DNA of 63,445 bases, counting the filler. It is 8 parts of 8 records of this genome, joined end to end, with 100 filler letters (N's around TTAATTAATTAA, not from the genome) between each part and the next. Parts side by side here need not be neighbours in the genome. Positions count along the whole stretch, not along the records: positions 5,880 to 21,245 come from SRR31147125_10356; 7 more parts are not named here. One strand, 5' to 3'. Below are positions 2,815-21,245 of the stretch, one piece after another. The notes beneath the pieces were generated by a model that ran no database searches, was not told where the DNA came from, and worked only from the letters and a program-made list of their open reading frames with translations. The position numbers and the translations under genes are program-made. Numbering within the stretch: position 1 is the stretch's first letter; every line of letters starts with the position of its first letter.

Positions 2815-2821
2815 AAATCAT

Positions 2822-2859
2822 GAGCTGTTTCACAAGAAAGTGAGAACGGCTCTTTTTTT
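2822..2859 (+). terminator. Intrinsic terminator
   Basis: Imperfect stem GAGCTGTTTCAC/GTGAGAACGGCTC followed by a T7 tract just after the stop at 2814. Confidence 0.7.
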
Positions 2860-2974
2860 ATGTTAATTAATCTGAGATTATGATACAAGATTAATTGCAT
2901 GTGATATAATGGATTTAATAGAATATATTAACTTAGAAATCGGCATATTAGAAATCTTTTTTATGAGGACTTAT

Positions 2975-4273: not shown

Positions 4274-4343
4274 GAGGTTTTACGAAGGGAATTTTAACGG
4301 TAACATAGTGCTGATGATAAATAGTAGAAATAAAGGAGAGCAT

Positions 4344-5507
4344 ATGAAAAGAATATTGTTGATTTTATTAGTAATTGGCTTAGTGCTGACAGGATGCAGC
4401 AGCGGGAATCAAATTGGCGAAGATAACGAAGAGGCATTAAATGAGGACAGCGTGCAAAGCGACAGTGATTTGAATTACGATGAGGACGTGCTTAACCAGA
4501 CCTTTAACGATTGGATACTGGGAACGGAATACGGAATAGACGAAATCAAAGTCGATAAGGATAAAAAAGAAGTTCAAATTGTTATGTCGGATGATAAATA
4601 TGCTGCATTGCAGGACTATGATTTTGATGATATTTCAAATAGTATTAAAGATATTTTATCTTTTTATGATTTATCCAGTGAATTTAAGATAATCTTTTCT
4701 AACGGTGAAACTTTAGATATAAAAACAGAATATGATGATACGGATAGTGATGACAACCAACAGAGCCAAATGGAAGATGAAGAAAATAACCAGCAAATTA
4801 ATGCAGACGGTGAAGTGATTAACTTGATTTTCATTCATCACAGCGTAGGCGAAAACTGGCTGAATGCCGGATTAAACGAAATGTTAAACGAAAACAATTT
4901 TCATGTAGCGGATACATACTACGGCTGGAGGGAGATGGGCGACAGGACTGATACTACCGACTGGCCGGACTGGTTTAATGATGATGTAATGCCTACAGTC
5001 TACAATGAGCTTGGGAATATGACAGGATATAATTCGATTGAGGCGGCAGAGGGCGAAAACACCATAGTAATGTTTAAATCCTGCTATCCTAACAGCGACG
5101 TGGGTAAGTCTATTGACGATGAAAAAGAGATATATTTAAGTCTCCTTGACTATTTTTATGACCATCAGGACAAAATGTTTGTTTTGATTACGCCCCCTCC
5201 TATGCAGAGCATTTCCAATGCTGAGAAAACAAGAGAGCTAACTAATTGGCTGGTTTCCGAGGATGGCTGGAGGAAGGATTATAAGGGAAACAATCTATAT
5301 GTGTTTGACTTTTATAATGTGCTGACAGCCGAGGATAACCACCATATGTTATTGGACGGTGCTGAAGAGCATATTATTAACGACAACTCCAATACATTGT
5401 ATTACGATTCATGGGGGGATGACCATCCGAATGATGAAGGCAGCAGTAAGGCTGCGGAGGAATTTGTTCCCTTACTTGTGTATTGGTATGAGAATTTTGT
5501 ACAATAA
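4344..5507 (+). CDS. Lipoprotein with C-terminal SGNH-like alpha/beta domain
   Basis: ATG 4344 after AAAGGAG. Lipobox LTGC, acidic linker, and a domain with FIHHSVG, VMFKSC, VLITPPP and DDHPN (SGNH block V-like DxHP). Confidence 0.65.
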   Translation: MKRILLILLVIGLVLTGCSSGNQIGEDNEEALNEDSVQSDSDLNYDEDVLNQTFNDWILGTEYGIDEIKVDKDKKEVQIVMSDDKYAALQDYDFDDISNSIKDILSFYDLSSEFKIIFSNGETLDIKTEYDDTDSDDNQQSQMEDEENNQQINADGEVINLIFIHHSVGENWLNAGLNEMLNENNFHVADTYYGWREMGDRTDTTDWPDWFNDDVMPTVYNELGNMTGYNSIEAAEGENTIVMFKSCYPNSDVGKSIDDEKEIYLSLLDYFYDHQDKMFVLITPPPMQSISNAEKTRELTNWLVSEDGWRKDYKGNNLYVFDFYNVLTAEDNHHMLLDGAEEHIINDNSNTLYYDSWGDDHPNDEGSSKAAEEFVPLLVYWYENFVQ

Positions 5508-5779
5508 TGCTATAAAATATAACTATCGCAAAGTATTATTGTAATTTTACAGCTAGACTAAATAATGTTTTGAGTACTGTTGAAAAATTGATTTGTTTAC
5601 GCTAAATGTAGTAAATAATTTATCGAAAACATACTATATACAGTATAGAACTTGTTGAATAAGTGAATTATTCAGCAGACCCTTTATGTATTTCAAATTG
5701 TTTGTAAAGCAATTTGGGATATTTTTTTATTAACAAAATTGTAATAAATGAAAAATTTTCTTGACATTATTGCGGTAAT

Positions 5780-5879
5780 NNNNNNNNNNNNNNNNNNNNN
5801 NNNNNNNNNNNNNNNNNNNNNNNTTAATTAATTAANNNNNNNNNNNNNNNNNNNNNNNNNNNNNNNNNNNNNNNNNNNN
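5780..5879. other. Artificial contig spacer
   Basis: 44 N + TTAATTAATTAA (stops in all six frames) + 44 N. Confidence 0.99.
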
Positions 5880-5880
5880 A

Positions 5881-5923
5881 CAGAAAAAGCGGGCGGGATT
5901 CTTAAGGGCAGCCAGCCCTTAAG
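5881..5923. repeat. GC-rich REP-like hairpin at contig end
   Basis: CTTAAGGGC-AGCCA-GCCCTTAAG perfect 9-bp stem, preceded by GCGGGCGGG, in AT-rich context. Confidence 0.45.
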
Positions 5924-6011
5924 GTATCTATCACAACAACAACCTGCCATCCTCAAATATTGCACCAATTCAATAAACACACCCAATATTCATCCAAATA
6001 TATTAAAAAAA

Positions 6012-6191
6012 CTACCTCTTCCTCTTAGCCTTCTTCATCTCTTTCTCTTCATTTTCCATCTTAATCTTTATCGCCGCAGCAATATAAGCCCTCTCTTCAC
6101 GAGAAAGGGCTAAATATTCATGCGGTAAAATCTTTAATTTGTGAAGACAATAATAAGCCTGATTGGCTTCAAAATCACCTTCACTTATGAG
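6012..6191 (-). CDS. Tail assembly chaperone -1 frameshift extension (gpGT-like); not in ORF track
   Basis: The -1 frame after slippery A_AAA_AAC (6197-6191) reads LISEGDFEANQAYYCLHKLKILPHEYLALSREERAYIAAAIKIKMENEEKEMKKAKRKR*. Confidence 0.85.
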   Translation of the reverse strand, partial: LISEGDFEANQAYYCLHKLKILPHEYLALSREERAYIAAAIKIKMENEEKEMKKAKRKR

Positions 6192-6610
6192 TTTTTTGCC
6201 TCATCTACCATCTCTTCCATATTGGTGTCAAAACCATTAATCTCTTGTATCTTTTGGCTAAGCTCCGAAAACTCGCCAGGCAAAAGCATAGCCTTTAAAG
6301 CTTCTGCCGCCCCCATAACACCATAACTATCCTGCAAATCTTTATCATTCAAATCAGGATAAACAATACAAGCACATACCATTTTAGCAAGATAAGCATT
6401 AACATCAGTCTCAGGAGTCTTAACCCCACGCTTACCTGCTACCTTAACAGTACAAGATTTTCGTATTGCCTCATCTTCCTTAGAAGAAATAGCCTTAACC
6501 TTCCACTTTATAGCATCACCCTTTTTATCAACAAATCTTTTAGAAACTAAAATTTCCACTTCCTCAGCCGCAATTGCATTTCCAGCCATAAAAGCCCTTA
6601 AATCACTCAT
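6185..6610 (-). CDS. xkdN: Phage tail assembly chaperone, XkdN-like
   Basis: Motifs VSKRF, CIVYPDLNDKDLQDSYGV, MLLPGE and EAKN; directly downstream of the tube gene. Confidence 0.85.
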   Translation of the reverse strand: MSDLRAFMAGNAIAAEEVEILVSKRFVDKKGDAIKWKVKAISSKEDEAIRKSCTVKVAGKRGVKTPETDVNAYLAKMVCACIVYPDLNDKDLQDSYGVMGAAEALKAMLLPGEFSELSQKIQEINGFDTNMEEMVDEAKNS

Positions 6611-6727
6611 ATTTTCAACTTCTCCTCTAATTCAATAATAAACGCATAAAACCTAATACTTACTTAAATGCAAGCCTATAAATACTAGTATGTATCCGTT
6701 CCTCCAACCAATCAATAATCAATTCCT

Positions 6728-7198
6728 CTAAACCATACCCTTAAGAATACTAAACTTCTCAGGAATCTCAAAATCATCAAATGTAAACTCAAACTCATCT
6801 TCCAAATACTCTTCATCAGCATCAAACTTAGCCAAAACAATGCTATCAATATTACAATCCTTAAGTATTATTGTCTGTCTGCCAACACTAGATGTTGGAT
6901 CCTCATTCGTAACCTGAATATCAAAATAAAGGTCTGTTCCAGTCTCCTTATACTCATACATAATCTCTCTAAATACAGAAGTATTAAAATGAAAAGTTGC
7001 AGACCCAGTACCAGTCCACCCTGTCGCCTTATTCCCCTTTCCAGTCTTACCAAGTATAGGGACCTCTGTCTTTTGTTTCTCAACCTCAGCCTCAAGGTTA
7101 ATACATTGCATAAAGTTATATCTTTTACCATCTAAAGTTACAAAACACTCTGCCATAGAAGCAGTAATTGTGTCTCTAGCACTCATCTTTATCGCCAT
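6728..7198 (-). CDS. xkdM: Phage tail tube protein, XkdM-like
   Basis: Motifs VPILGKTGKGNK..GWTGTGSATF, QVTNEDPTSSVGRQT and EFTFDDF; follows the sheath gene. Confidence 0.9.
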   Translation of the reverse strand: MAIKMSARDTITASMAECFVTLDGKRYNFMQCINLEAEVEKQKTEVPILGKTGKGNKATGWTGTGSATFHFNTSVFREIMYEYKETGTDLYFDIQVTNEDPTSSVGRQTIILKDCNIDSIVLAKFDADEEYLEDEFEFTFDDFEIPEKFSILKGMV

Positions 7199-7308
7199 AA
7201 TTTCTCCTTATCTTACTAAATAGTGAATAAGTAATAATGAACAATAAGACTATTCACCCAATCATCCATTAACCTTATTCAATCACTCATCATTTATTTT
7301 CTATTACT

Positions 7309-8619
7309 CTACTGCACCACAACAGTCATATAAAGCTGCTCCATAGCAGATGTAGGTGTTATATAATCAGTAACAACAACGCCATTTTTACTCTCTCCAG
7401 CTACAACCTCAATATCACCAGCATTAAAGTTCTCAATCGCCCCAACAGACTCCAAGTTCCTATGATGAGCAACAATATCACTCCAAAGAGCAACCCTGTT
7501 AGAAGCGTCATTAGCCTTAGCACCCAAATATTCAGAATTAAAAAGATAAGCTATATCATTAGCCACCTGATCAACAACCCTAATAGTCTGATTCTTAGAA
7601 AACTCCCTGCCCTTTTCTTCGGTAATAGTCGTAAGACTATTGATATCAACCAAAATCCTAACCTCTTTACCGCTCAAATAAAGCATAAACTTCCCACTCT
7701 CAATCCCACGCTCACAAGCTTCGGTGGTATAACTAATATCAACATCAAACTCGCCATCATATAGCTTATTAGTAGCACTTTCATTTATACCAGTCCCAGC
7801 CAATGCTCCGCTTACCCAGTAAACAACAGATGAAGCAAGCGCACCAACAGTAGTACAAGCATTGTCAACAGAAACAACACCCTCATAATCAGCTGTTTCA
7901 CGCTTATATACAACACATTGAAACTTAATACCTTGTTCGTCCCTCATTCTCTTAGTAAAAGCAATATACAAATCTTTGATTGTATCATCAGTAGATAAAC
8001 AAGCAAGCGTATTAAATGTATAAGGCTCAATAGCTGTCAAAAATGCACTATGTTCACTTCCAGTAATAGCATCACCATTAGATCCCCCAGTCATATTGAC
8101 GCCAGCATTCGCAGCAAGCGTAGCAGTCTTATCAAATACAATATAATCATTATCAACAAGACCAGATGCAGCAGCTACAGTCTGGCTATCAACAACTTCG
8201 CCATCAAGCATAGTATCCACATCAAACATACTATTATCATCAGCATTAACTGCAATGATATTTTTAATGTCATTCCCTCTTACGCCTTTATATTTAGCTT
8301 CACCAAATGCATTAGAAGCCTTAGCTCCACCGTTAATTAAACGATAAAAATACACTTCAATAGCATTTTTAAATATATCCCTAATACCTTTTAACCTATC
8401 GTCGCTATACGCATATCCAAATTTAGATTTAGCAGCTGTAGCAAAGTTTTCAACTTCTATGTTAAAAACACTTTCACTACCCCAATCCATTTCCAAACCA
8501 ATAGCAACAACCCCTCTTTCAAATAAGTTGTCGATATTAGCAATACTAGATACCGTATTAATATAAGCACCAGGTAATACCTTGTTTTGTGCTGTAAAAA
8601 CACCGCCACCAAGAGCCAT
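7309..8619 (-). CDS. xkdK: Contractile phage tail sheath protein, XkdK-like
   Basis: N-terminus MALGGG.FTAQNKVLPGAYIN, FSKNQTIRVVDQ.ANDI and C-terminal AMEQLYMTV. Confidence 0.92.
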   Translation of the reverse strand: MALGGGVFTAQNKVLPGAYINTVSSIANIDNLFERGVVAIGLEMDWGSESVFNIEVENFATAAKSKFGYAYSDDRLKGIRDIFKNAIEVYFYRLINGGAKASNAFGEAKYKGVRGNDIKNIIAVNADDNSMFDVDTMLDGEVVDSQTVAAASGLVDNDYIVFDKTATLAANAGVNMTGGSNGDAITGSEHSAFLTAIEPYTFNTLACLSTDDTIKDLYIAFTKRMRDEQGIKFQCVVYKRETADYEGVVSVDNACTTVGALASSVVYWVSGALAGTGINESATNKLYDGEFDVDISYTTEACERGIESGKFMLYLSGKEVRILVDINSLTTITEEKGREFSKNQTIRVVDQVANDIAYLFNSEYLGAKANDASNRVALWSDIVAHHRNLESVGAIENFNAGDIEVVAGESKNGVVVTDYITPTSAMEQLYMTVVVQ

Positions 8620-8802
8620 CTACTTCACCGCCTTTGCCAAAAATTCTTTTATCATCTTATCCACTCTACTAAATGTATAAGACTCCCCACTTTTCAAAAT
8701 AGCATCCAGTATATCTGCTTTTTCTCTATACTTTTTACTCTTCATTAATCTATCCTTGCTAAAGGTTAAAATACCTTTTTTAACTTCTTTTTCTTTTTCC
8801 AA
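8620..8802 (-). CDS. Small phage protein preceding sheath
   Basis: 60 aa with FSK..L.KSKKY...D.L.A.L....YT..VD.MI.EFL. Conserved position between the tail terminator and the sheath. Confidence 0.7.
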   Translation of the reverse strand: MEKEKEVKKGILTFSKDRLMKSKKYREKADILDAILKSGESYTFSRVDKMIKEFLAKAVK

Positions 8803-8803
8803 A

Positions 8804-9205
8804 TCACTTCACCTCAATATCAATTTCTTCCATGTTCTCTACTGCCTCTAGCTGATTTACAAAGACAGGTTTAAACGATACAAAAAAATGCAAAACACCT
8901 TCTATTATTTCGTATCGTCTTTTCTTCCCAAGCAACGCACCATCTTCGCACCTTACACACTCCAGCAAGTCAAAAAGCCTATCACCAACATCACGCATAT
9001 AAGAATAACTTTCCGAAAAAAAATGAATATCCAAATTGATATCCTGCTGATACCTTCCAATACTAACTTTAGCCACACTAGAATCAATATGGCTAATAAA
9101 AAAACAAGGCTTAGAAAAACCTTGCTCCACAGATTCCGTATAAATATCAAAAGTCTCATATTCGTTTTTTATAGCCTTAGCTACAAAGTCAATAATATCA
9201 TTCAT
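8804..9205 (-). CDS. Phage tail terminator/completion protein
   Basis: IYTESVEQGF.KPCFFI and GVLHFFV motifs. ATG 9205 overlaps the upstream stop. Confidence 0.75.
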   Translation of the reverse strand: MNDIIDFVAKAIKNEYETFDIYTESVEQGFSKPCFFISHIDSSVAKVSIGRYQQDINLDIHFFSESYSYMRDVGDRLFDLLECVRCEDGALLGKKRRYEIIEGVLHFFVSFKPVFVNQLEAVENMEEIDIEVK

Positions 9206-9638
9206 CAAATATCTCCTTAACAAAGCCATCCAATTTAGGCTGTATGACCGCACCTATCTTTCTTTGCGTGCTATCTATAGCCTTCTGCATCATATATTTA
9301 CCAAAAACCCATCCTTTAACAAGCGTCTTACCAATAACAGGAACAAACATACCAACCTTCTGCATATGCCCATACTCAACGTGCGATGCATAATCCATAT
9401 CATTAAAAACATCCATCACAAAACTATCGGAAGCTCCACTTACTTTACCAACTCTCCAAGCATCTCGTAGTTTTCCAGTTTCAACCGGAGTATTGCTTTT
9501 AACTTCAACTAAAAAAAGCTCAGCAACCTCATAAGCCATATCCTGCGTAAACTTTGATGCATCCTTTTTAACTGCCTTATCAATTTTTTTAGAAAGCTCT
9601 TCTAGCCCACTAAAATCAACCTCAACCGTTTTGCCCAT
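9198..9638 (-). CDS. HK97 gp10-family neck/tail protein
   Basis: TPVETGKLRDAW, YASHVEYGH and GWV.G.YMM motifs. Confidence 0.85.
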   Translation of the reverse strand: MGKTVEVDFSGLEELSKKIDKAVKKDASKFTQDMAYEVAELFLVEVKSNTPVETGKLRDAWRVGKVSGASDSFVMDVFNDMDYASHVEYGHMQKVGMFVPVIGKTLVKGWVFGKYMMQKAIDSTQRKIGAVIQPKLDGFVKEIFDE

Positions 9639-9640
9639 TT

Positions 9641-10006
9641 TTATGCACCTTCATTGTCATTTAAAAGCTTTATCTCCTGATGGCTAGAATATTTCCTAGC
9701 AATCCCACTTGCTTTATAAGCATATATAACGCCATCTTTCATAACTTCAACAATGCTACCAGGCAAAATTTCAATATCAGCATCCAAAAAAAGCTTAACC
9801 TCTTGTTTTATAAAGGCATATGCCTCACCTTGCTGTGCAGGAAAAACCTCTTTAACCGAAAGCTTACACGGAATATCAGAATACTTTAAGCTCCATTCAA
9901 AATCAGATACTCCCGTATCCAAAACAACTTTTTGCCTCTCATACACATAAGCAACATGAACATATAACATAGCTTTTGTTTTTTTCAAAATATCCAAATC
10001 TACCAT
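9641..10006 (-). CDS. Phage head closure / head-tail adaptor protein
   Basis: DIPCKLS, KLFL....EI.PGS.VEV and Y.SHQEI motifs; position after the connector gene. Confidence 0.7.
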   Translation of the reverse strand: MVDLDILKKTKAMLYVHVAYVYERQKVVLDTGVSDFEWSLKYSDIPCKLSVKEVFPAQQGEAYAFIKQEVKLFLDADIEILPGSIVEVMKDGVIYAYKASGIARKYSSHQEIKLLNDNEGA

Positions 10007-10380
10007 GATATCCTCCTAAAAACTAAAAGGTCAGATTTATCAAGCAAAGTATCAATAATAACATCAATCCTCTGCTCTCTTGTCATCTGACCTTTACCAA
10101 GCCCAAACTCAATCCTAGTATCGCCCTCGGTTAAAGCCGCAACAGCAGATCCAATATCAATCCCAATATCCTGTCCACTGTTTTTCCTCGTATGTAAATA
10201 CTCACCACAAACTAAGTCTATCCATTTATAGTACAGCTCACTAGGCACTTCAACCACATTACATTCGTTTTTTATATCAGCTTCCGCCTTTTCAATTAAA
10301 TATACAATCATAGGTTCATCCAAAGTGGAATCTATGCCAAAATACTCAAGTCTATACTTAACATCAAAAAAGCTAATCAT
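10000..10380 (-). CDS. Phage head-tail connector protein
   Basis: IKNECNV.EVP.EL, LTEGDT.I.F and FRRISW motifs. Probable start ATG 10380. Confidence 0.75.
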   Translation of the reverse strand: MISFFDVKYRLEYFGIDSTLDEPMIVYLIEKAEADIKNECNVVEVPSELYYKWIDLVCGEYLHTRKNSGQDIGIDIGSAVAALTEGDTRIEFGLGKGQMTREQRIDVIIDTLLDKSDLLVFRRISW

Positions 10381-10573
10381 CTTTGCCACCAATATTCATC
10401 CTGTCAGAATCACCGGTTTCTTCAACATCAGAAAGGTTACTCAAAACACGAATCTCTTTTAAAGCACTAGTCTTATATACACCGTTTTCAAACTTCTTCT
10501 TTTTACCACTAACATAAAATGATAAGCTAGGGTACCTTCTACACTCAAAAGTATGTATATTCGCTTTAGCCAT
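10373..10573 (-). CDS. Small capsid-associated hypothetical protein
   Basis: ORF directly after the major capsid gene; YPSLSFYV..KF.NG.YKT. Probable start 10573. Confidence 0.6.
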   Translation of the reverse strand: MAKANIHTFECRRYPSLSFYVSGKKKKFENGVYKTSALKEIRVLSNLSDVEETGDSDRMNIGGKDD

Positions 10574-10674
10574 ATTTTTTGACCATCCTTTCATCTACAA
10601 AATACAAAACACGATAAAACCACTAGGCTAAATCGCATCTCATTGCAAATTGTATTAAGTTTCAAACTTACCAC

Positions 10675-11778
10675 CTACTTAATGTTTTTAAGTCTAGCGT
10701 GTGCTTTTTCCTCTTCAAACTTAAAAGTATATTCACCAAGCACCATACCCTTATAAGTATCGCCAGTCTTACCAAGATACTCGTGGAACATGCTTCTCTT
10801 ACCAAGAGGATGAACACTCATTCTAGAATGATCTAAAAATAGTATTTCATCAGTCTTTAAATTATTATTAGAAATAACAGGGAAAATACCATCATCAGTC
10901 TGAATAAAGTTAACAGTATAACCACGGACAGTATCCTCTCTACCTTGCGACCCATTATCAGCAACCATAAGGTCAGAAACCTTAGCAACCATAGAAGGAT
11001 GCATATGGAAGTTATAACTAGCCTTGCCACTCTTAAATCCGCCTGCTAAGTTAACTTCTCTTGTCATATCCTTTAGCATATCTATACTAACATCAACACC
11101 ACCAGCATCAGAAATATTCGTTGTCAAAAATTGCTTTACTCCACCCATAAAACGTTTAGCACCATCAACCGACTCATATTTAATCCCCTGAACCAAAGCT
11201 TTTTCCAAAGATAAGAATAGTTCAGTCTGTCTCTTAACTCTTCTTCTTTCATACTCAGAAACAACACCATATTGATCCAGTTCCTGAATAGTTCCAGAAA
11301 CCTCAATAGTATCCGTAAATATCTGAGTAAAGTTTGCTTTCTTTACTCTTTGTTTAGCTCTAGCATCTCTCGCCTCTTGTCCTTCAACAGAATCAACAAA
11401 AAGATACTCAATAATCTCACCGTTAGAAATAGCAGCAGCAGTTGTACCATTATATCCTCTTACAACGGTTAAATTCTTAGTAGTCTCATTCACCTCAGAA
11501 ATCAAAACAAGCTCTTCACCTATTCTCGCAACCGAATCCTTAGTAAATGGCTCAGTGTCGTCAACAACAACGTTTACGCCACTATCAGTTACAGACCCCT
11601 CCACACTACTTTGGGTTGCAAACATCCCATCTTCCACCCACTCATAGTTCGTGTTCTTTATTGGTGTACCAAACCCAATAGCACTAATAATAGGCACTTG
11701 CGTTGGATCCAAAAGCAGATAATCATCTTGAACCGCTTCTTTTTTACCAACAATCAACTTACTTAAAACATCACTCAA
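10675..11778 (-). CDS. Major capsid protein (DUF5309/SU10-like) with beta-rich insertion
   Basis: YEWVED, NFTQIFTDTIEVSGT, RFMGG and LGKTGD..KGM..GEYT motifs; insert with VVRGYNGTTAAA. TTG start after GAGG. Confidence 0.85.
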   Translation of the reverse strand: MSDVLSKLIVGKKEAVQDDYLLLDPTQVPIISAIGFGTPIKNTNYEWVEDGMFATQSSVEGSVTDSGVNVVVDDTEPFTKDSVARIGEELVLISEVNETTKNLTVVRGYNGTTAAAISNGEIIEYLFVDSVEGQEARDARAKQRVKKANFTQIFTDTIEVSGTIQELDQYGVVSEYERRRVKRQTELFLSLEKALVQGIKYESVDGAKRFMGGVKQFLTTNISDAGGVDVSIDMLKDMTREVNLAGGFKSGKASYNFHMHPSMVAKVSDLMVADNGSQGREDTVRGYTVNFIQTDDGIFPVISNNNLKTDEILFLDHSRMSVHPLGKRSMFHEYLGKTGDTYKGMVLGEYTFKFEEEKAHARLKNIK

Positions 11779-11796
11779 TTCTTTTTACCTCTTTCC

Positions 11797-12279
11797 TTAA
11801 TTTTCGCTTTCTATTTTAGCCCTCGATAAAGCCACACTATTTTCAAACGTAGGCTTTTTCTCAAAGGCTAACTTAGCTCTTTCATACTCACTTCTTACAT
11901 CCGATACATTATCAACGCTCTCCGCAGGCTTAACTCCATTAATAACAGGCTCAATTTTATCTCCAAACAAAAATCCAGCACTCTTATCATCCATCAAAGC
12001 CTCAATCTGATCATTAAGTCCAACAATATCATCCCCATCAAAGGTTATTTTCCCCATATCAAGAAGCGCCTTTGTTGCCTTTATATTTTTAGCATTGGCC
12101 TTACTAAGCGCCGAATCAACAGCATGACTTAACTTCATATCCCTAAGTGCCTTGTCATAATTCTCTTTAACAACTTTGTTCTCATCTTGCATCTTCTCAA
12201 TTTCAGCCATAACCTTATCAACAACTCCATCCTTAAGACCAAGTCTTTTCAAAAATCCTTTATCCATTCTTTCCTCCAT
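11797..12279 (-). CDS. Capsid scaffolding protein (GP20-like), short
   Basis: FLK.LGL....DKVMAE, AL.KANAKN.KA.KALLD and GLNDQIEAL....FLF motifs; directly upstream of the capsid gene. Confidence 0.85.
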   Translation of the reverse strand: MEERMDKGFLKRLGLKDGVVDKVMAEIEKMQDENKVVKENYDKALRDMKLSHAVDSALSKANAKNIKATKALLDMGKITFDGDDIVGLNDQIEALMDDKSAGFLFGDKIEPVINGVKPAESVDNVSDVRSEYERAKLAFEKKPTFENSVALSRAKIESEN

Positions 12280-12316
12280 AAACTTTTCACCGTTATAAAC
12301 TTTATTTATAAAAAAT

Positions 12317-12339
12317 AAAAAAACATGCTTTCACATGTT
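12317..12339 (-). terminator. Intrinsic terminator inside late operon (portal to scaffold)
   Basis: Minus strand AACATGT-GAAA-GCATGTT-TTTTT: 7-bp stem, GNRA loop and U tract. Confidence 0.6.
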
Positions 12340-12431
12340 ACTTTACAAAAATCAATAGTTACACTTTTAAAGAGTTTACTTGTGTCTATAAACCAAAATA
12401 CTGGCTTAAAAAATATTACACAAAATTTATA

Positions 12432-12620
12432 AGAACGTTATCCGTTCCTCCAAACATCCTGCCATCCACAAATATCGCATTAATTTTATTAGAACAAGCC
12501 GTTCCTCCACTCCAAATAGAAACCTCAAACGTAGCATTTATGACCTTTAGGTTGCTATTAAATATTAGAACGCTATCCATTCCTCAAAACAACTTTTCCA
12601 TCCTCAAATATCCCACATAA
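12432..12620. repeat. Degenerate direct repeats (about 55 bp, two copies plus a partial)
   Basis: AGAACGTTATCCGTTCCTCCAAAC...CCATCCACAAATATC (from 12432) versus AGAACGCTATCCATTCCTCAAAAC...CCATCCTCAAATATC (from 12567). Pieces recur at 5947-5960 and 6693-6707. Confidence 0.7.
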
Positions 12621-12713
12621 TTCATAAATTTAGAGTAGACAACAAGCCCCTTATAAATCATCCATATTAAAAGCACTAAAATAACTACCACCACAATGCT
12701 CCTTATTTTTTCA

Positions 12714-14099
12714 CTAAACCCCCTGCTCCAAAACAGCCTTAATCTCTTTATCAAAATCATCAACAAAAGGATGCTTAGCAACAAGCGTCCTGTTAGAAAT
12801 TATACCAACAGACTTTGTAATATCGTCAATCAAAGTAGATGTATTAATCATAACGTCTCTATTAAAAACAAACTCAACATTTTCATCAAAATCATTATTA
12901 TCTTCCAAACTCAAAAATTGATTTACAAACCAAATCAAACAATCCATGCTATAAGTAAATTCAGCCTCAATGCCATTAGCATCAAGGTCAATATCAGAAT
13001 ACATAGATTGAATATTCATCTGATTAGGATTACCACTCATACGCTCATCTTTAGCATCAAAACCCTTAGCATTTTCAATCAAAGACTTCTTCAAAATGCC
13101 CAATATAACCTGATAATTTTCGCTACTAACTTCAACACTTAACGTCCTAACATCTCCACCTGCTTCACCATCAACATTTCTAACTTTAACTGCACCATAA
13201 GTTGCAAGATTCTTCCTAAACTCGCCCAAATCCTGTCCATCATAATTCACAACCACCATAATAGTGTTTCTAGCATCTTCACACATATTGTCCATAAAAT
13301 TAGACGTAATTGTATTAACAGCATCTTGCAACGACTTTACTTTACATATAAGCGGAATCTCTTTGCGATTAGCCTTAAACGCAACCAATGGTATCCTATC
13401 CCAATTATAATCCTGCTTTTTATCTCCATTATCTATCGTAAAGTAAGCCTGCTTATCACATTCTGGCTTCAGTATTCCCTTCTCCAAACTGTAATACTCA
13501 ATACCATCCAGCTTATATACTTCAACCTTCTCTAAAGTAACATGGTTTTTTCCATCATAAGCTTCAACTTCATACAACCTAACTGCCATATCAAGCTCAG
13601 TATGTGCCCTGTCTTTCCAAAACGGTAATACCTCATACGCAGGGATAATCCTAAACTGTGGCATATTCTGTTCAATATAAAAGTAAACATAGCCTGCACC
13701 TTGGTTAAGAGCATCTTCCAAAACATGCTTTAATAAAAGCATAAATCCTTTATCAAATACCTTACATAGCTCTCCAGAAAAATAATCGTCATTACACTTT
13801 AAAGTCAAAGGTTTTCCCAATAAATAGTTCACCTTCTGGTCCACCACTTTTTGATACTGATTATCCAAAATGATGTTATTTGGAAGATTTTCAACTTCAA
13901 AGAGCATACCGTCTTTACCGATAGTAGTACGTAATTTTTTTAATATATCATGCTCACCACTATAGTACTTTTCCCCCAATAACTGATTCTTCCTCCAAGA
14001 GCTTTCCTTCCATCTTGCTATCTCTTGCTCCAAAAATCCTTTCTCACTTAACGCTTTACCAGAATAAAACTTAATCTTCTCTTTAATCAATTCGTTCAT
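12714..14099 (-). CDS. Phage portal protein, SPP1 gp6 family
   Basis: LPNN....NQY...VDQKVNYLLGKP, WDRIPLVAFK and GNPNQMNIQSMYSDIDLDAN motifs; follows TerL. Confidence 0.92.
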   Translation of the reverse strand: MNELIKEKIKFYSGKALSEKGFLEQEIARWKESSWRKNQLLGEKYYSGEHDILKKLRTTIGKDGMLFEVENLPNNIILDNQYQKVVDQKVNYLLGKPLTLKCNDDYFSGELCKVFDKGFMLLLKHVLEDALNQGAGYVYFYIEQNMPQFRIIPAYEVLPFWKDRAHTELDMAVRLYEVEAYDGKNHVTLEKVEVYKLDGIEYYSLEKGILKPECDKQAYFTIDNGDKKQDYNWDRIPLVAFKANRKEIPLICKVKSLQDAVNTITSNFMDNMCEDARNTIMVVVNYDGQDLGEFRKNLATYGAVKVRNVDGEAGGDVRTLSVEVSSENYQVILGILKKSLIENAKGFDAKDERMSGNPNQMNIQSMYSDIDLDANGIEAEFTYSMDCLIWFVNQFLSLEDNNDFDENVEFVFNRDVMINTSTLIDDITKSVGIISNRTLVAKHPFVDDFDKEIKAVLEQGV

Positions 14100-14195
14100 A
14101 TTTCCCTCTCACATATACAATACTCATTAGCACATTAAGCCCAAATCCATTTTTACACATGTCCCTTAGTTATCCAAAATTAAAATTCTTCCATC

Positions 14196-15470
14196 CTAAT
14201 CAAAACTAAACTTCTCAGAATTTATCACATCTTCCATAGCATATCTCATAGCATCCATAAGATGATTAAAATCATCAATAGGCTTATTTATAGGTTTACC
14301 AAATCCATCTTTATCCCAAGTATAATTACTAACTTCAGTCAAAAAATTAACGCATCGCGGATGTATAATTAGTCTAAAATCAAATATCCTCTGTATTCCA
14401 TTCAAAACACTATCAGCACCTTTTTTTGCAGTTTGAATTCTATATAGCCCAAATTCTCTAAGCTCAGCTATGCTCTTCGGTTCAGCAGAATCAGCTCGTA
14501 TGCGCTCTTTTGCATAACCCTTTATGCTTATCTCAGCATATATCTGCTTGTTGGTCAGTCCCTTTTTATACATCTCATCAAAAACATGTATTTCTTTATT
14601 TGCACTATCAACAAGCCCACAAAATAAAGCAGAGGGATCATTTGTATACCCAAAGTCCAACCCAAAAGCAGATTTGACTCCACTCTTTCTTGTTACTTCA
14701 TTTATATCAAATTCTTTTTCCACCCAGTTTTCATATATAAGCCCATCAGATACCCCCCACTCACCAAGACCAGCAACTTTATATCGCTTAGGATTATTAA
14801 TCCTCATATCCTCAAAAAGCTTCATATCAGCATCATCCAAAAACTCATTGCAAATATAGTTAGTCGTCTTCGCCAAAATCTGTCCGTCTTCCGAAATATT
14901 CGAAATACTACTGTCAGAAAACCCATCAAAAAAACGTTTCTTTATCCATATTCTCTCATTCCAAGGATTAAACGTAAGTGTTATCTGTTTAAACAACTTA
15001 GCCGGAACTTGTCCCCTAATGCTCTCGTCGAGCATATCAAAGTCTTCTTCCTTACTAATCTCAAAAGCCTCTTCAATCCAGCACCAGCAAAGATAACCAG
15101 TTTCAACGGTTACAGATGTAACTTTCATAGGATCATCAAGCCCGCGGAATAATATTTTCTGCCCTGTGGGTTTGTATTTAAGCTCCAATGGCGATTCTTT
15201 AATAGCCCAAGCTTGCGAAACATTCAGACTTTCAATAGCCCACTTAAGCTCAGCAAAGCAGCTATCCTTAAGTGTCCTAAAAACTTTTCTAACTACAAGC
15301 GCATTACTATCTTTATACATCATAATGTGGCTTATAAGCCAAAGAGCAGTTGTTTTAGACTTTTTTGAAGCGCGAGACCCTTTACACACCCTATACCTGC
15401 CCCTAAATTCCCAAAAATCCTTATATCCTTTACCAACCAAGCTCGGTAGGTCAACAGTCTCAGTCTTCAA
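14196..15470 (-). CDS. terL: Terminase large subunit, PBSX family
   Basis: Walker A-like KGSRASKKSKT, WIEEA Walker B, LTFNP, GLDFGYTNDP and NHLMDAMRYA nuclease motifs. Confidence 0.95.
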   Translation of the reverse strand: MKTETVDLPSLVGKGYKDFWEFRGRYRVCKGSRASKKSKTTALWLISHIMMYKDSNALVVRKVFRTLKDSCFAELKWAIESLNVSQAWAIKESPLELKYKPTGQKILFRGLDDPMKVTSVTVETGYLCWCWIEEAFEISKEEDFDMLDESIRGQVPAKLFKQITLTFNPWNERIWIKKRFFDGFSDSSISNISEDGQILAKTTNYICNEFLDDADMKLFEDMRINNPKRYKVAGLGEWGVSDGLIYENWVEKEFDINEVTRKSGVKSAFGLDFGYTNDPSALFCGLVDSANKEIHVFDEMYKKGLTNKQIYAEISIKGYAKERIRADSAEPKSIAELREFGLYRIQTAKKGADSVLNGIQRIFDFRLIIHPRCVNFLTEVSNYTWDKDGFGKPINKPIDDFNHLMDAMRYAMEDVINSEKFSFD

Positions 15471-15855
15471 GTTTATCCATCCCCTTAAAAACTACAATAA
15501 CAGCCTCATCCTTTTTACTAGTAACAAGAGTTTTCCCCAAAACCTCCAAAGCCCTAAATCGATCTTTATCAACAGCCTTTTTACCCCTAGCAATATCAGT
15601 AAAGTCTCTCATAATCTCCTCTTCTGTAGCAATCTCACTGCAATAATTTTTATCCTCATCAGCAACCTTGCTTATAAAACTCTTATCGCGGATATCTTCC
15701 ATATATTTCTTAACCTCTTGCTTTTCCAAAATCTTTGTCGCCAAAGCAAAAGCTGACTCTCTATTTTTACAATTTAAATAAACACTCAAATAAGCACTAG
15801 CTGCATCCTTACATATCAAATATTCGTCTACAAACTTTTTCTGTTTTTCAGTCAT
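15460..15855 (-). CDS. terS: Terminase small subunit
   Basis: MTEKQKKFVDEYL...A..AY, IAT.EEI....T.IARG and DR.RALE.LGK. ATG 15855 after GGAG; overlaps TerL. Confidence 0.88.
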   Translation of the reverse strand: MTEKQKKFVDEYLICKDAASAYLSVYLNCKNRESAFALATKILEKQEVKKYMEDIRDKSFISKVADEDKNYCSEIATEEEIMRDFTDIARGKKAVDKDRFRALEVLGKTLVTSKKDEAVIVVFKGMDKLED

Positions 15856-15939
15856 ATATCTTCTCCAAAAAGCAATAATAAAAAAATATCGCAAAAACTA
15901 TTATCAGGGTTTATCTCGTACCCATAAATTTTCAAAATC

Positions 15940-15968
15940 AAAAAGAAGCACTTTTTACAATGCTTCTT
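15940..15968 (-). terminator. Intrinsic terminator just downstream of late promoter
   Basis: Minus strand AAGAAGCA-(10 nt)-TGCTTCTT-TTT. Confidence 0.55.
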
Positions 15969-15989
15969 CCAATAAATTATCACTATATG

Positions 15990-16022
15990 ATACTACCACC
16001 AATCATCGGCGATAAACGGCAA
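15990..16022 (-). promoter_or_regulatory. Putative late promoter with activator direct repeat
   Basis: Minus strand ttGCCGtttatcGCCG (10-bp period) in place of a -35, then extended -10 TGGTAGTAT. Lies between the ArpU-like gene and terS. Confidence 0.6.
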
Positions 16023-16045
16023 TATTAATTTTATTATATCAACAT

Positions 16046-16507
16046 CTAAAAACCACAAGCACGCTTAATCTTAGCTAGAGCTACATTCTTAATATTCCTG
16101 CACTGTCTTTCACTATAAGCAATAACATATCCAATTTGCTTTGCCTGTCTACGCTCAAAGTACCTAAGTCTAATATATTGATATTCATGCGAGAGCAAAT
16201 CAGCCCTTTTAACATTATCTTTAATCATCATCTGCTGAGTCTCACAAGAAGCAATTTCTTGGCCGATTTTTAGTATCTTTTTATTCATCTCATCTTGAAT
16301 CTCAATAACTGTATCGAGCACAGGATTGCTAACTTTATTCGTCCTTGCAACTTTAGTATCACTCATACCAGATACTTTCACACTATTAGCAATATAGTCC
16401 ATCTCACTTATCATCTCTTTTCGCTTATATTTAAGCTCTTCAATCTCTACCTTCAATCTATGATAACCATATAAATATTTCTCAGTACCGCTTAGTCTTG
16501 TCGCCAT
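16046..16507 (-). CDS. ArpU/RinA-like late transcriptional regulator (sigma4-like HTH)
   Basis: EKYLYGY..LK, coiled coil, SNPV, and C-terminal IRLRYFE....QIG..IAYSERQC.NIK..AL.KI. Immediately upstream of terS. Confidence 0.8.
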   Translation of the reverse strand: MATRLSGTEKYLYGYHRLKVEIEELKYKRKEMISEMDYIANSVKVSGMSDTKVARTNKVSNPVLDTVIEIQDEMNKKILKIGQEIASCETQQMMIKDNVKRADLLSHEYQYIRLRYFERRQAKQIGYVIAYSERQCRNIKNVALAKIKRACGF

Positions 16508-16568
16508 ATATTCTCCTTACTTTCAATTATATATTCCAAGTTCTATATTCAAAATAATTCTTACTACT

Positions 16569-16931
16569 TTACAAACAATCAACCCTTTTAGTATTACAAT
16601 TAAGGTTATTTATTACGGTTTTCTCAATAAGTTTTATTCGCCTCTGTACTTTTTTCGAATTTCTTTCTAATTCATCATAAAACCTCGTCCTATCCCAGCA
16701 GCAAAGTTTAACAATAATATCCAAATTCTCTCCACGAATAATAGAAGAAGCCACCAACGTCAAAGTCATGTCAGAAAACTCTCTTTGCTTCGCATTAACA
16801 AGCTTTTCCAGCTTCTGCTTTCGCTTCTCATTAGAATAATATTCATACCTACATGAGACGCAGCAAAACATATGCCTAAAATCTCTTTTTAAAAATACAC
16901 TCCCACAATTTCTACAATAATCATTCTGCAT
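16569..16931 (-). CDS. Zinc-finger phage protein, first gene of leftward operon
   Basis: CRNC-x11-CCVSC motif, GGAG RBS and a helical C-terminus. Confidence 0.65.
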   Translation of the reverse strand: MQNDYCRNCGSVFLKRDFRHMFCCVSCRYEYYSNEKRKQKLEKLVNAKQREFSDMTLTLVASSIIRGENLDIIVKLCCWDRTRFYDELERNSKKVQRRIKLIEKTVINNLNCNTKRVDCL

Positions 16932-16972
16932 TAATATTCTCCATTACCATTATTATTATTTTCTCCGCGCCA

Positions 16973-17065
16973 CTTACATTGTAAGCAAATATTAGCATAT
17001 AATACTTACTGTGTCAATTTTATTTTTCTGCATATGTTGACAAAGTTACATCCCTTGTGTACTAT
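16973..17065. promoter_or_regulatory. Divergent sigmaA promoters with palindromic operator
   Basis: Leftward TTGACA(17017-17012)-17bp-TGcTAATAT. Rightward TTGACA(17037)-17bp-TACTAT. Perfect palindrome CTTACATTGTAAG at 16973-16985. Confidence 0.75.
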
Positions 17066-17085
17066 TCTATTAAAAGGAGAAAATT

Positions 17086-17433
17086 ATGAATAAACGTTTA
17101 AAAACAATTCGGAAATATCTAGGTCTTACTCAATCAGATTTTGGAGAAAGAGTTAATCTAAAAAGGAATACAATTACACTTATTGAAAATGAACAAAGAA
17201 ACATAACCGATAGAACAATATCCGATATATGTAGAGAATTTAGTGTAAACGAATCATGGCTTCGATTTGGCGAAGGTGATATGTTCAAAAAACCAAACTC
17301 ACTTCTCGAACTTCTAGGTGATAAGTTAGATGAACTTACACAAGAAGACAAATCGTTTCTTTGTAATTTTCTAAATATGACCAAGCAGGAAAGAGAAGCA
17401 CTTTCAAGCATATTAAACAAACTGGCAGAATAA
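17086..17433 (+). CDS. XRE-family HTH repressor (CI-like, no peptidase domain)
   Basis: RLK.IRK.LGLTQ.DFGE.VNL....I..IEN and F.VNESWLRFGEG.MF; 115 aa; AAGGAG RBS. Confidence 0.9.
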   Translation: MNKRLKTIRKYLGLTQSDFGERVNLKRNTITLIENEQRNITDRTISDICREFSVNESWLRFGEGDMFKKPNSLLELLGDKLDELTQEDKSFLCNFLNMTKQEREALSSILNKLAE

Positions 17434-17488
17434 ACTATACAACTACTTTATTTTTTGATTAAGGAAAAAAGGTTATAATTCAAATCAA

Positions 17489-17632
17489 TCATTTTCTATT
17501 ACATCTTTTTAAATATAACCTAAATACAAATTCAAATACATTATTAAGGTTATTATCATCCAACTTTTTCAGCATTATATTTATCTGCTTTTCTTTATAT
17601 ATTCTCTTGTTCACACTATAATCTTCTTTCAT
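17489..17632 (-). CDS. Small 47-aa protein convergent with repressor (possible anti-repressor); not in ORF track
   Basis: MKEDYSVNKRIYKEKQINIMLKKLDDNNLNNVFEFVFRLYLKRCNRK*, with GGAGG upstream. Confidence 0.55.
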   Translation of the reverse strand: MKEDYSVNKRIYKEKQINIMLKKLDDNNLNNVFEFVFRLYLKRCNRK

Positions 17633-18024
17633 ATAGCTAAAAACTGCCTCCATAACTTCAAGTATAAAAACTGTATATATACTCGGTAAAAATACTTAGC
17701 CACAAAAACTCAAATATCAATCAAATTTTTAATTCGTATTTTTTAAGTGTGTCCGCATAAAACCGTCTTTCATAATCACTACAGTCATAAACATCAATAA
17801 TCAGCGCATATCCAACATATTCTACCATAAGATTTTTTGCAAAATTGTTGAATTGTGTCGTTTTATGTATTTTTTTGACGTTTATATGTACAAATTATAA
17901 TTTATGTAATATAATTTAAAATTAGTCATAAATATAGTAAGCTTAAAGTTTGGTGTTTTTCGACCTAAAAATTACATAAAAAGTCAATGCATTTCGATTC
18001 AAACAAAATAAATGCTAGCAAAAC

Positions 18025-18062
18025 AAAAAGCCGCAATAGGCATTACACCCATCGCAGCTTTT
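18025..18062 (-). terminator. Terminator of eda-kdgK
   Basis: Minus strand AAGCTGCGATGGG...CCTATTGCGGCTT-TTT after the kdgK stop. Confidence 0.6.
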
Positions 18063-18087
18063 GTCAGTTCAATATATTATTTTAAGT

Positions 18088-19116
18088 CTATCTGTTAACT
18101 CTCCCAGATCCATCTCCATCCATCAGTTTCTCAACTTCATCCGCTTTAACACGGTTAAAGTCGCCAGAAATAGAATGCTTCAAACAACTAGCAGCAACGG
18201 CAAACTCAAGTGCAGCTTGCTTGTCTTCATATCTATTAAGTCCAGCAATAATTCCACCAGAGAAAGAATCCCCGCCACCAACTCTGTCGATAATATCATT
18301 GATCATATATTTTTTACTTAAATAAAAGTTTTCTCTATCATTCAAACATGCAGCCCAACCGTTAATATCAGCAGATTTACTCTCACGCAATGTAATAGCA
18401 ATCATCTTCATATCAGGGAACTGTTTCAAAACTTCATTTCCAAGCTCTTCATACTTTTTACTATCAAGCTCACCCTTTTCAACATCAACATCAACGCTAA
18501 TACCCAACGATTTTTGGCAATCTTCTTCGTTAGCAATTCCAACATCAACATATTTAACAAGTTCTCTCATAACATCAACCGTATCTTCGCCATACTTCCA
18601 AAGTTTTTTTCTATAGTTAAAGTCACAAGAAACAGTAACACCGTGCTTTTTCGCTATCTTAACAGCTTCTAAAGAAGCTTCTTTAGCTTTTACACTAATA
18701 GCAGGCGTAATACCAGTAATATGAAACCACTCAGCATCTTTAAAAATACCGTCCCAATCTATTTCATCTTTTTCAAGCAAAGATATGGACGAATACTCTC
18801 TGTCATAAACCACATTTGATGCCCTTTGGTTTGCTCCACCTTCTAAAAAATAAATCCCTACCCTGCCATCTCTTCTCACAATCGAGCAAGTATTAACACC
18901 AAATCCTCTAACTTCTCTAATACAAGCATCAGCAATATCATTATCAGGAAGTGCAGTTATAAACTTAACGTCCATCCCAAAATTAGCAAGCGATATTGCA
19001 ACATTAGCCTCTCCACCACCAAATGTAGCTTCAAGCATATGGTTTTGAAAAAACTTCTCATGTCCAGGAGACTTTAATCTCAACATTATTTCACCAAAAG
19101 TTACAAATTTACTCAT
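18088..19116 (-). CDS. kdgK: 2-dehydro-3-deoxygluconokinase (PfkB family)
   Basis: [37 protein letters not shown] and DRVGGGDSF motifs; next to eda. Confidence 0.9.
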
Positions 19117-19194
19117 AATAAATAATCCTCTCTATCTTTTTTCAATACATATAAAAACATAACCAAGCGTACAAAAATAAATCAACAACCAAAA

Positions 19195-20151
19195 TTATTT
19201 TTGAAGCAAGTGTACTCCAAAGCCAGCAACTTCATCTTCCAAATAAACAGCAATCTTCTTATCACCCTTAGATTTCAAAGTAGACATATCAACTTTGTAT
19301 CCTCTTTGCTTTAAATAATATATAGCTCTGTCAATGTTATTTGTAGAAACAGCAATATGACCGTTTTCACCAATACCTTTTCCATTCATAATCTCAAAAC
19401 CTTTACCAACAAAGTTAGAGCTATTACCAGTCTTAACCCCAAATCCAAACATATCATCAACCTTAGAAGCAACTTTCAACGATTCTTCACCGCCACTAGT
19501 ATTAATACCTATGTGAATAAGTTCAAATCCAAGCAATACGTCAATAGAATCCTTAACTGTCTTAGCGATGTTATCATAGTTGCCTGCCTTCATATCAGCT
19601 CCACTACATAACCATCCACCACCAATAGCATGAATAAATTCCTTATCAGCAAATTCACTAAGATTTTTAAGGCTAACACCACCTGTCGGCACAAACTTAA
19701 CCATTCTATACGGTCCATACAAAGCCTTACATCCGTTTATACCCCCATAAACACTAGCTGGAAAAAACTTAACTATATCAACCCCCATAGAAAGAGCGTG
19801 ATCAATCTCAGTAGGTGTAACACAACCAGGTGTAATCATAACATCATTATCCAAACAATAGGATACAACATCATCATTAAAACCAGGACTAACAATAAAC
19901 TTAGCTCCAGCCTCAACAGCCGCCTTACACTGATCAAGATTCAAAACAGTTCCAGCACCAACCAAAATTTCCGGATATTTTTCACTAACCATTTTAATAG
20001 CAGGAAGCCCACAATCAGTTCTAAGTGTAATCTCCATAATAGGAAGCCCACCCTCAATCATAGCCTTAGCAGTAGAATCAACATAATCCATGCTATCAAA
20101 AACAACAACAGGAACAAGTCCCATCAAACCAACTTTCTCACTTATAGTCAT
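19195..20151 (-). CDS. eda: KDPG/KHG aldolase, long clostridial form with C-terminal extension
   Basis: EITLRT, VGAGTV, FIVSPG, PGCVTPTE, VKFFPA and FVPTGGV motifs, plus about 110 aa C-terminal domain. Confidence 0.9.
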   Translation of the reverse strand: MTISEKVGLMGLVPVVVFDSMDYVDSTAKAMIEGGLPIMEITLRTDCGLPAIKMVSEKYPEILVGAGTVLNLDQCKAAVEAGAKFIVSPGFNDDVVSYCLDNDVMITPGCVTPTEIDHALSMGVDIVKFFPASVYGGINGCKALYGPYRMVKFVPTGGVSLKNLSEFADKEFIHAIGGGWLCSGADMKAGNYDNIAKTVKDSIDVLLGFELIHIGINTSGGEESLKVASKVDDMFGFGVKTGNSSNFVGKGFEIMNGKGIGENGHIAVSTNNIDRAIYYLKQRGYKVDMSTLKSKGDKKIAVYLEDEVAGFGVHLLQK

Positions 20152-20164
20152 AACATACTCCTTT

Positions 20165-20229
20165 GTTCGTTATTTGAACTTGACATTCTTTATATGAACA
20201 TAATACTACTTAAAACTATAAACTGTCAA
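20165..20229 (-). promoter_or_regulatory. eda promoter with two IclR-type operators
   Basis: TTGACA (20229-20224)-18bp-TATTAT, then GTTCATATAAAGAAT and GTTCAAATAACGAAC (GTTC-N7-GAAC palindromes). Confidence 0.6.
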
Positions 20230-20278
20230 GAAAAAAAGAGCCAACTAGCCCTTTTAAACCATAATAAATATTTATTTT

Positions 20279-21037: not shown

Positions 21038-21245
21038 TAAAAAAAATCGTTTCCTTTCACTGTAACTATTCTTATCATCAAAACCACAAATAGTTATAAA
21101 AATAATGCTTTACACATTAAAGTCTCCAAATACTTATTAGCGTTATGATTGTATCAGCTTTTATATAATTTTATCAACATTTTTTTACACATACCATAAT
21201 CATTTAATCATTATTACAAAGTCAAAATAGCAAATTCAATTTTTT

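Follow-up and report, generated by a model that had tools for sequence, protein, structure and literature searches.

Among Gram-positive bacteria, particles of the gene transfer agent (GTA)-like and PBSX-like kinds have been described in very few lineages. One described layout is that of the PBSX-like region Bp15.1PLP of Bacillus pumilus. As tabulated in PMC8347963 (Table 1), it begins with a backward-oriented XRE regulator, a short middle cassette and a sigma-like positive factor, proceeds through the small and large terminase subunits (terS and terL), the portal, a protease/scaffold and the capsid, and then runs into sheath, tube, chaperone and tape measure; that table lists neither an integrase nor a Mu-F gene for the PBSX-like region. 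The element considered here is a prophage-derived head and contractile-tail element located just downstream of the terminator of the host gene kdgK. It was found in a stretch of 63,445 bases (the window), and its host is an uncultured low-GC, Clostridia-like member of the Bacillota.

Judged from family names and layout, not by alignment, the element is similar to PBSX and Bp15.1PLP as these appear in the table. In each case a backward XRE repressor (~115-125 amino acids) faces a short cassette ending in a sigma-like factor before terS, terL belongs to the PBSX family, scaffold and capsid come directly after the portal without a Mu-F gene, and sheath, tube and chaperone are of the XkdK/M/N type, with no integrase beside the repressor. 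However, the middle cassette of the element is shorter than those tabulated: where these have XkdB-D/XtrA or XRE/resolvase/XtrA, it has one Zn-ribbon open reading frame (ORF). The element also has a capsid of SU10 type (PF17236) and a separate scaffold instead of a protease-scaffold, resides in a Clostridia-like host rather than in Bacillus, and is known from the genes to the right of position 5880 alone.

Two other systems invite comparison. FpGTA of Faecalibacterium, here set beside the element by description only, is a GTA-like element from a Gram-positive gut Clostridia lineage; the 2026 study of it (PMC12946183) describes it as podovirus-like, with experimental packaging data, and as only the second such Gram-positive system after PBSX. 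R-type tailocins (diffocin, pyocin R) likewise keep a contractile sheath and tube under repressor control, but by definition are without terminase, portal and capsid. A tailocin reading was rejected, since the element has terS and terL as well as genes for portal, scaffold and capsid.

Gene order and control region of the element

The window consists of eight contigs of 5.8-15.4 kb, glued together by seven N44-TTAATTAATTAA-N44 linkers. The contig of the element occupies 5880-21245 (15.4 kb), with a depth of ~5x on the element and the kdg genes alike. The visible part of the element is its right-hand 11.6 kb, in which 17 ORFs, all open and with overlapping or closely spaced starts, extend over 11 kb. 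Families were assigned by profile matches to PHROGs, Pfam and NCBIfam, by clusters in the Atlas and by a word-based protein search. From the repressor leftward, the features are as follows.

17086-17433, plus strand: XRE/HTH_3 repressor, 115 amino acids, facing the leftward operon
16989-17065, no strand: back-to-back divergent promoter-like sites, TTGACA-17-TAATAT leftward and TTGACA-17-TACTAT rightward
16569-16931, minus strand: Zn-ribbon-like orphan ORF, 120 amino acids, CxxC...CxxC, first gene of the leftward operon
16046-16507, minus strand: late transcriptional activator, Ltr/sigma-70-region-4-like, 153 amino acids, phrog_36 at 1.4e-14
15941-15970, minus strand: terminator-like hairpin and T-run, between activator and terS
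15460-15894, minus strand: terS (PF03592, phrog_51)
14196-15470, minus strand: terL, PBSX family (TIGR01547, 182 bits against a cut-off of 105)
12714-14099, minus strand: portal, SPP1 gp6 type (PF05133)
12280-12713, minus strand: non-coding gap of 434 bp from portal to scaffold, with repeat copies C (12439-12496) and B (12574-12632)
11797-12279, minus strand: head scaffolding protein (PF06810, phrog_194)
10675-11778, minus strand: major capsid protein, SU10 type (PF17236)
8620-10594, minus strand: neck/connector block (a phrog_966 ORF, a tail terminator (PF20765), an HK97-gp10-like tail completion protein, two head-tail adaptors and a 73-amino-acid ORF)
7309-8619, minus strand: contractile tail sheath (PF04984, PF17482, PF17481; phrog_279)
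6728-7198, minus strand: tail tube, XkdM type (PF09393, phrog_365)
6185-6610, minus strand: XkdN-like tail assembly chaperone (PF08890, phrog_389)
6012-6197, minus strand: slippery site A_AAA_AAC (6191-6197) and -1 frame extension of the chaperone, 59 codons and stop
5880-6011, minus strand: non-coding stretch of 130 nt that includes repeat copy A (5938-5981) and, at 5901-5923, a hairpin with a 9-bp stem
5780-5879, no strand: artificial contig join N44-TTAATTAATTAA-N44

An initial annotation of the stretch had given the same gene order and coordinates, which are confirmed here with family support for most genes. It had also proposed the frameshift signal, and this too holds: the slippery site is identical, and the 59-codon -1 extension conserved, in IMG/VR UViG_3300035698_020008 (L001), the only close relative found. 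This conservation argues for a working tail module. The family to which terL is assigned, TIGR01547, also takes in true phages. A search of the element contig against Rfam returned no match at E <= 1.

In the control region, no peptidase domain was detected in the XRE repressor. Both promoter-like sites between the repressor and the leftward operon match 10 of 12 consensus positions, and an inverted repeat covers both -35 boxes. The description of promoters and operator as intact is thus borne out for the hexamers, which are good; promoter-like sites are in no excess across the region (14, against 13.3 +/- 4.1 expected from shuffles), and the operator is a guess. A LexA (Cheo) box was found nowhere in the element, and the count in the window was not above chance.

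Only one ORF, the 120-amino-acid Zn-ribbon protein, lies between the repressor and the late activator. It has no family in PHROGs, Pfam, NCBIfam, the Atlas or the word-based protein search and no relatives in phage records or among 5.8 billion proteins, and its single-sequence AlphaFold model is too poor for a fold search (mean predicted local distance difference test score 38.6). The activator ends 152 nt before the annotated start of terS. Besides its phrog_36 match, it has weak, sub-threshold matches to sigma-70 over residues 21-150 and 75-150 (E 3e-3), and DUF722, DUF1492 or Sigma70_r4 occurs in 12-55% of the members of the nearest Atlas clusters. Relatives are scarce, with a single 28% match among 50,697 phage records and none in IMG/VR or metagenomes, and the single-sequence AlphaFold model (predicted template modelling score 0.27, two long helices) is again too poor for a fold search. 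Its earlier label, ArpU-like, is apt at the level of the Ltr superfamily (RinA/ArpU/LtrA-C), to which both its size and its position upstream of terS conform; no ArpU-named model in Pfam or NCBIfam matches it, and membership of the ArpU family itself was not found. According to a report on Ltr proteins (PMC3753634), activation of the late operon from upstream of terS requires no other phage factor.

On the host side, the element is followed by a short flank and a sugar-acid operon.

17434-18025, no strand: flank of 590 bp between repressor and kdgK terminator, in which two small orphan ORFs lie
17489-17653 and 17727-17831, minus strand: the two orphan small ORFs
18026-21037, minus strand: iclR-kdgA-kdgK host operon, with a terminator at 18026-18062

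The operon is syntenic with that of a Christensenellaceae metagenome-assembled genome (L084), to which kdgK, kdgA and iclR are 77%, 70% and 54% identical, respectively; the best metagenome match to IclR is 66%, on short contigs. One public sequencing run, probably that of the source sample, matches the stretch (90% of sampled words), and its Logan contigs were used for mapping. One such contig spans 16974-18129, from repressor to kdgK, without differences, and since this contig is independent of the assembly, the junction is real. No integrase or recombinase signal was found in the flank between repressor and kdgK, and neither integrase nor replication genes are present over 5880-18087. Only chance-level matches of 10-17 nt, and so no attachment-site (att)-like repeat, were found between 17400-18100 and the rest of the window, which also contains no tRNA. 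In a search for the empty site, DNA downstream of kdgK in seven relatives matched no other window contig.

The element and the kdg genes are closely similar in composition. Coding-strand GC skew is 0.40 in the former and 0.39 in the latter, and the distance between them in codon usage (0.70) is unexceptional, the null being 0.62 +/- 0.10 and 22% of resamples giving an equal or larger value; in synonymous codon usage the two are indistinguishable. The skew of ~0.40 on 5880-21245 far exceeds that of the relatives compared, among which phage loci range from 0.16 to 0.29 and kdg/iclR loci from 0.08 to 0.26. This shared composition shows that the element is adapted to its host lineage. The earlier statement that C/A richness of the plus strand continues into the host genes is numerically right, although the C richness partly follows gene orientation, and the long residence deduced from it is a weak inference. 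Temperate phages usually resemble their hosts in composition.

Comparison with relatives and the two missing modules

The terL of the element is 63-70% identical to proteins on more than 500 IMG/VR contigs, and 80 terL loci from IMG/VR were compared (L001, L005 and L053 are among the comparison loci). Relatives that share a common terL (68%), portal (47-52%) and tail genes carry a replication module. On a 42-kb contig (L005), for example, a processivity factor, a DNA polymerase and a primase lie on the same strand upstream of a phrog_36 regulator, which itself occupies the same position as in the element, directly before terS. No replication module is found at the corresponding place in the element, where the Zn-ribbon ORF stands alone.

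A second omission lies between portal and scaffold. The spacing between these genes is 2.2-3.5 kb in 10 of 10 terL loci (of the 80) in which both were detected. In L005 and L053, the gap is filled by a minor head protein of 516-727 amino acids (phrog_115), and minor head homologues after the portal are also carried by phiC2 and by CB452P1, the closest annotated relative of the capsid (41%); across the comparators this protein measures 309-727 amino acids. No homologue of a minor head protein (Mu-F/SPP1 gp7 type) was found in the window, the best match having an E value of 0.77. Both omissions, of the replication module and of the minor head gene, match the published PBSX-type layout.

The closest annotated tails are those of the Clostridioides difficile myophages phiC2, CDMH1 and phiMMP01, together with that of Streptococcus pneumoniae EJ-1. 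The sheath, tube and XkdN of phiC2 are 52%, 72% and 47% identical to those of the element (the sheaths of CDMH1 and phiMMP01 are also 52% identical), and the order connector, sheath, tube, chaperone is the same. However, terL of phiC2 shares only 33% identity with that of the element, and the search for capsid homology found none. Furthermore, phiC2 carries an integrase, which sits beside its repressors, several repressors and antirepressors, and Erf, DnaD and single-stranded DNA-binding protein genes. Its portal is followed by a minor head/maturation protein, and its tape measure is preceded by three extra ORFs. None of these features occurs in the visible part of the element. Of the traits of phiC2/EJ-1-type phages, the element thus has the tail homology, but not the integrase next to the repressor, the replication module or the minor head protein, whereas it has the repressor/activator layout, the PBSX-family terL and the XkdK/XkdM/XkdN-type sheath, tube and chaperone expected of a PBSX-type element.

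In L001, the C-terminus of the capsid is 76% identical to that of the element, the tube 79%, and the sheath and XkdN each 59%. This record is cut inside the capsid gene, so that the regulatory side is outside its sequence, and by its GC content (0.405) and skew (0.25) it probably comes from a different host. Its tape measure gene (4685-5899) starts 4 nt after the chaperone extension, where the element is non-coding; LysM and XkdQ/R/S/T/U-like baseplate genes come next. No match to the tape measure and baseplate proteins of L001 was found elsewhere in the window. The tape measure has only 404 amino acids in L001, against 762 in phiC2 according to the coordinates annotated for that phage; the former length implies a short contractile tail in this sub-lineage.

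At both places where a gene of the comparators is missing, the non-coding DNA of the element contains an ~55-nt repeat with the core ATATTTGWGGATGG...GGAGGAAYGGATA. Its three copies (5938-5981, 12439-12496 and 12574-12632, all on the minus strand) and a partial copy between tube and XkdN (6693-6710) are confined to non-coding gaps of the late operon: two are between portal and scaffold, and one is at the expected start of the tape measure. The core has three matches in the window where 0.16 are expected, a number reached in 0 of 100 shuffles. The repeat is absent from 162 comparison loci, L001 included, and has no Rfam match; the fold of its consensus is negligible (-0.73 kcal/mol) and shows no covariation. 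A late promoter or operator is one possible identity of the repeat, a scar left by deletion or recombination another.

Interpretation of the element

The genes of the element and their order are observed directly; a regulatory cascade, a mode of packaging and a lack of autonomy can be inferred from them. The PBSX-like reading follows from the gene layout and from the two omissions, which both match the PBSX-type region as tabulated, and PBSX-like wiring is a fair description of a real feature. Under this reading, loss of repression would cause the leftward promoter to fire, giving an early transcript that would encode the Zn-ribbon ORF and the Ltr-type activator and extend up to the terminator at 15941-15970. 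Acting upstream of terS, the activator would then turn the late operon on, the PBSX-family terminase would fill SU10-type heads by a headful mechanism, and contractile tails would be joined to them. Because no replication genes are nearby, the packaged DNA would be unamplified and mostly chromosomal, as in PBSX. It is quite possible, if a little short of probable, that the element is unable to replicate by itself and functions as PBSX does.

The proposal of a PBSX/GTA-like candidate accordingly stands as far as control region and head layout are concerned, both being of PBSX type, while the absence of distal tail, lysis and integrase genes rests on an assembly break. Base 5880 is a true contig end, 130 nt past the chaperone extension, and bases 1-5779 belong to a separate contig with a MatE transporter and lipoprotein-like ORFs. 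Because the contig stops at this break, tape measure, baseplate, lysis genes and any integrase to the left of 5880 are unobservable; the contigs of the matching run begin at 5936, and none extends past the end of the element contig. The claim that the element has no replication or integration module is consequently valid between repressor and kdgK, and cut short by the contig join on the left. For the same reason, to call it minimal goes beyond the data. The earlier claim that the host maintains the element, and that it is no decaying prophage, is not established either, since it depends on close relatives and the collections searched contain none near enough. The structural ORFs that are present are intact, as had been claimed for all of them, but the minor head gene is absent and no tape measure starts after the chaperone.

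Several observations weigh against a PBSX-like particle. All sequence to the left of 5880 is missing, and integrase, replication, tape measure, baseplate and lysis genes may be there, or none of them. In comparison with L001, the expected start of a tape measure is not seen in the last 130 nt, which fits truncation or an intergenic spacer. The shared composition does not discriminate, as a host-specialised temperate phage would look alike. Relatives near enough to judge selection, or conservation at this locus, are absent from the collections searched: element genes were found at kdgK in 0 of the 80 best loci from species-representative genomes (in these, the best KdgK match is only 77%, and no close relative is among them), the best match to the capsid among 5.8 billion proteins is 70%, and a capsid homologue, at 30% identity, was found in one of 401 sampled genomes of the order to which the closest kdgK genome belongs. 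Likewise, genome contigs yielded no capsid relatives and IMG/VR a single one, L001 (76%, partial, C-terminus); most of the 215 proteins matching the capsid at E <= 0.001 are 40-47% identical, in Bacillaceae and Paenibacillus-type records, and the sheath was found in the genomes of 0 of 3 kdgK relatives. Finally, one contig of the matching run is shared from 17466 rightward and continues leftward with 255 unlike letters. This point is 33 nt after the stop codon of the repressor, a possible boundary of the element. The divergence hints at a population polymorphism, which would argue against a fixed domesticated locus; it could be the empty site or another immunity variant.

Further single-contig divergence points in the matching run are at 12497, which is the edge of repeat copy C, and at 12902, 9596, 16268 and 16455. 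The interval 16268-16455, inside the regulator gene, also occurs in a sequence of higher abundance (one bin has a depth of 23, where about 5 is usual). Moreover, 14 of the 42 matching-run contigs that align to the window are only 90-99% alike, and related phages co-occur in the sample. The divergence points may be module boundaries of such phages, or an empty site.

The same omissions could have arisen by decay. In a cryptic prophage that forms no particles, the region for lysogeny and replication and the minor head gene would have been deleted, perhaps along with the whole part that starts at the tape measure; the rest would still be intact for no other reason than that these losses are recent. 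Two modules of the comparators are indeed missing, the site of the tape measure start is non-coding and contains both a copy of the repeat and a hairpin resembling a terminator, the repeat copies at the other missing-gene site, between portal and scaffold, are compatible with deletion scars, and the absence from kdgK in other genomes (0 of 80) agrees with such an origin. However, all 17 ORFs over 11 kb are open, with overlapping or tight starts, slippery site and extension are conserved, and neither the promoter hexamers nor the repressor is damaged. The lost genes have left no pseudogene fragment, and the missing modules are exactly those lacking, according to the published table, in working PBSX-type elements. 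Decay is thus a somewhat unlikely explanation, though one to be taken seriously.

Alternatively, the contig may hold half of a complete, replication-competent temperate myophage of odd module order, the integrase, excisionase and replication genes of which would lie beyond the tail and lysis genes in the unassembled left part. The missing sequence leaves room for them, sheath, tube and chaperone are 47-72% identical to those of temperate C. difficile phages, the 90-99% alike contigs show an active pool of related phages, and an att boundary could underlie the loose end at 17466. Yet in temperate phages of Bacillota the integrase normally adjoins the repressor. It does so in phiC2, and both comparators annotated there have their replication genes upstream of the late regulator and terS. 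The repressor side of the element has no att-like repeat, tRNA or integrase remnant, and the sole integrase of the window (50524-51393) is on a contig of different composition. A complete phage is rather improbable on this evidence. An assembly chimera, in which phage and kdg sequences of different organisms were joined by the assembler, is very improbable indeed: coverage is low (~5x) and the assembly a fragmented composite, but the Logan contig crosses the junction without differences, and codon usage and GC skew are equal on both sides of it.

The PBSX-like reading can be carried further, to a gene-transfer or killing particle that is kept by its host and arose independently in an uncultured Clostridia lineage. 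Its head would combine an SPP1-type portal with an SU10-type capsid, without Mu-F, on an XkdK/M/N tail; control would be exerted by the repressor, the orphan Zn-ribbon protein and the Ltr activator only; and the element-specific 55-nt repeat would mark internal units of the late operon as regulatory sites. This more specific proposal is speculative and itself quite unlikely. If true, a myovirus-type example in uncultured Clostridia would widen the Gram-positive GTA/PBSX picture, and the element would offer a very small regulatory cassette for study. The record itself comprises half of an element, on a metagenomic contig with a depth of 5x; its main practical lesson is that the "missing" modules end at an assembly join and not at a biological boundary.

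A further intergenic motif and the remaining contigs

The motif GATGATTGGKKG occurs exactly at 7255-7266 and 15996-16007 (minus strand), in the sheath-tube and activator-terS intergenic regions. With at most one mismatch it has three matches in the window, against 0.79 expected and with 2 of 100 shuffles reaching three; as the pattern was chosen after seeing the data, its support is weak.

The remaining joins, and the genes on the contig that carries the integrase mentioned above, are as follows.

21246-21345, 29356-29455, 35450-35549, 44154-44253, 50423-50522 and 57137-57236, no strand: the six other linker joins
50524-51393, plus strand: tyrosine recombinase (PF00589), its 5' end cut by the contig start
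51448-51795, plus strand: membrane-like ORF of 115 amino acids, after the recombinase
51801-53033, minus strand: MgsA/RarA gene, convergent, after the recombinase

Over parts of its length, the recombinase shares 28-40% identity with the integrase of phiC2. It was considered as the missing end of the element and rejected, since its contig has a GC content at third codon positions (GC3) of 0.19 and a skew of 0.08, against 0.30 and 0.40 for the element. More generally, the other seven contigs differ from the element contig in relative synonymous codon usage by distances of 1.08-1.20 (null 0.41 +/- 0.075, maximum 0.79), and their coding-strand GC skew is 0.08-0.32, against 0.40 on the element. 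Across all window contigs, GC3 ranges from 0.19 to 0.35 and coding-strand skew from 0.08 to 0.40. Given these differences in codon usage, GC3 and skew, the contigs may derive from more than one organism. On the contig at 35550-44153, plus-strand ORFs include several large ones without a family, one with an FHA domain and one of 578 amino acids with weak RHS/MORN repeat matches.

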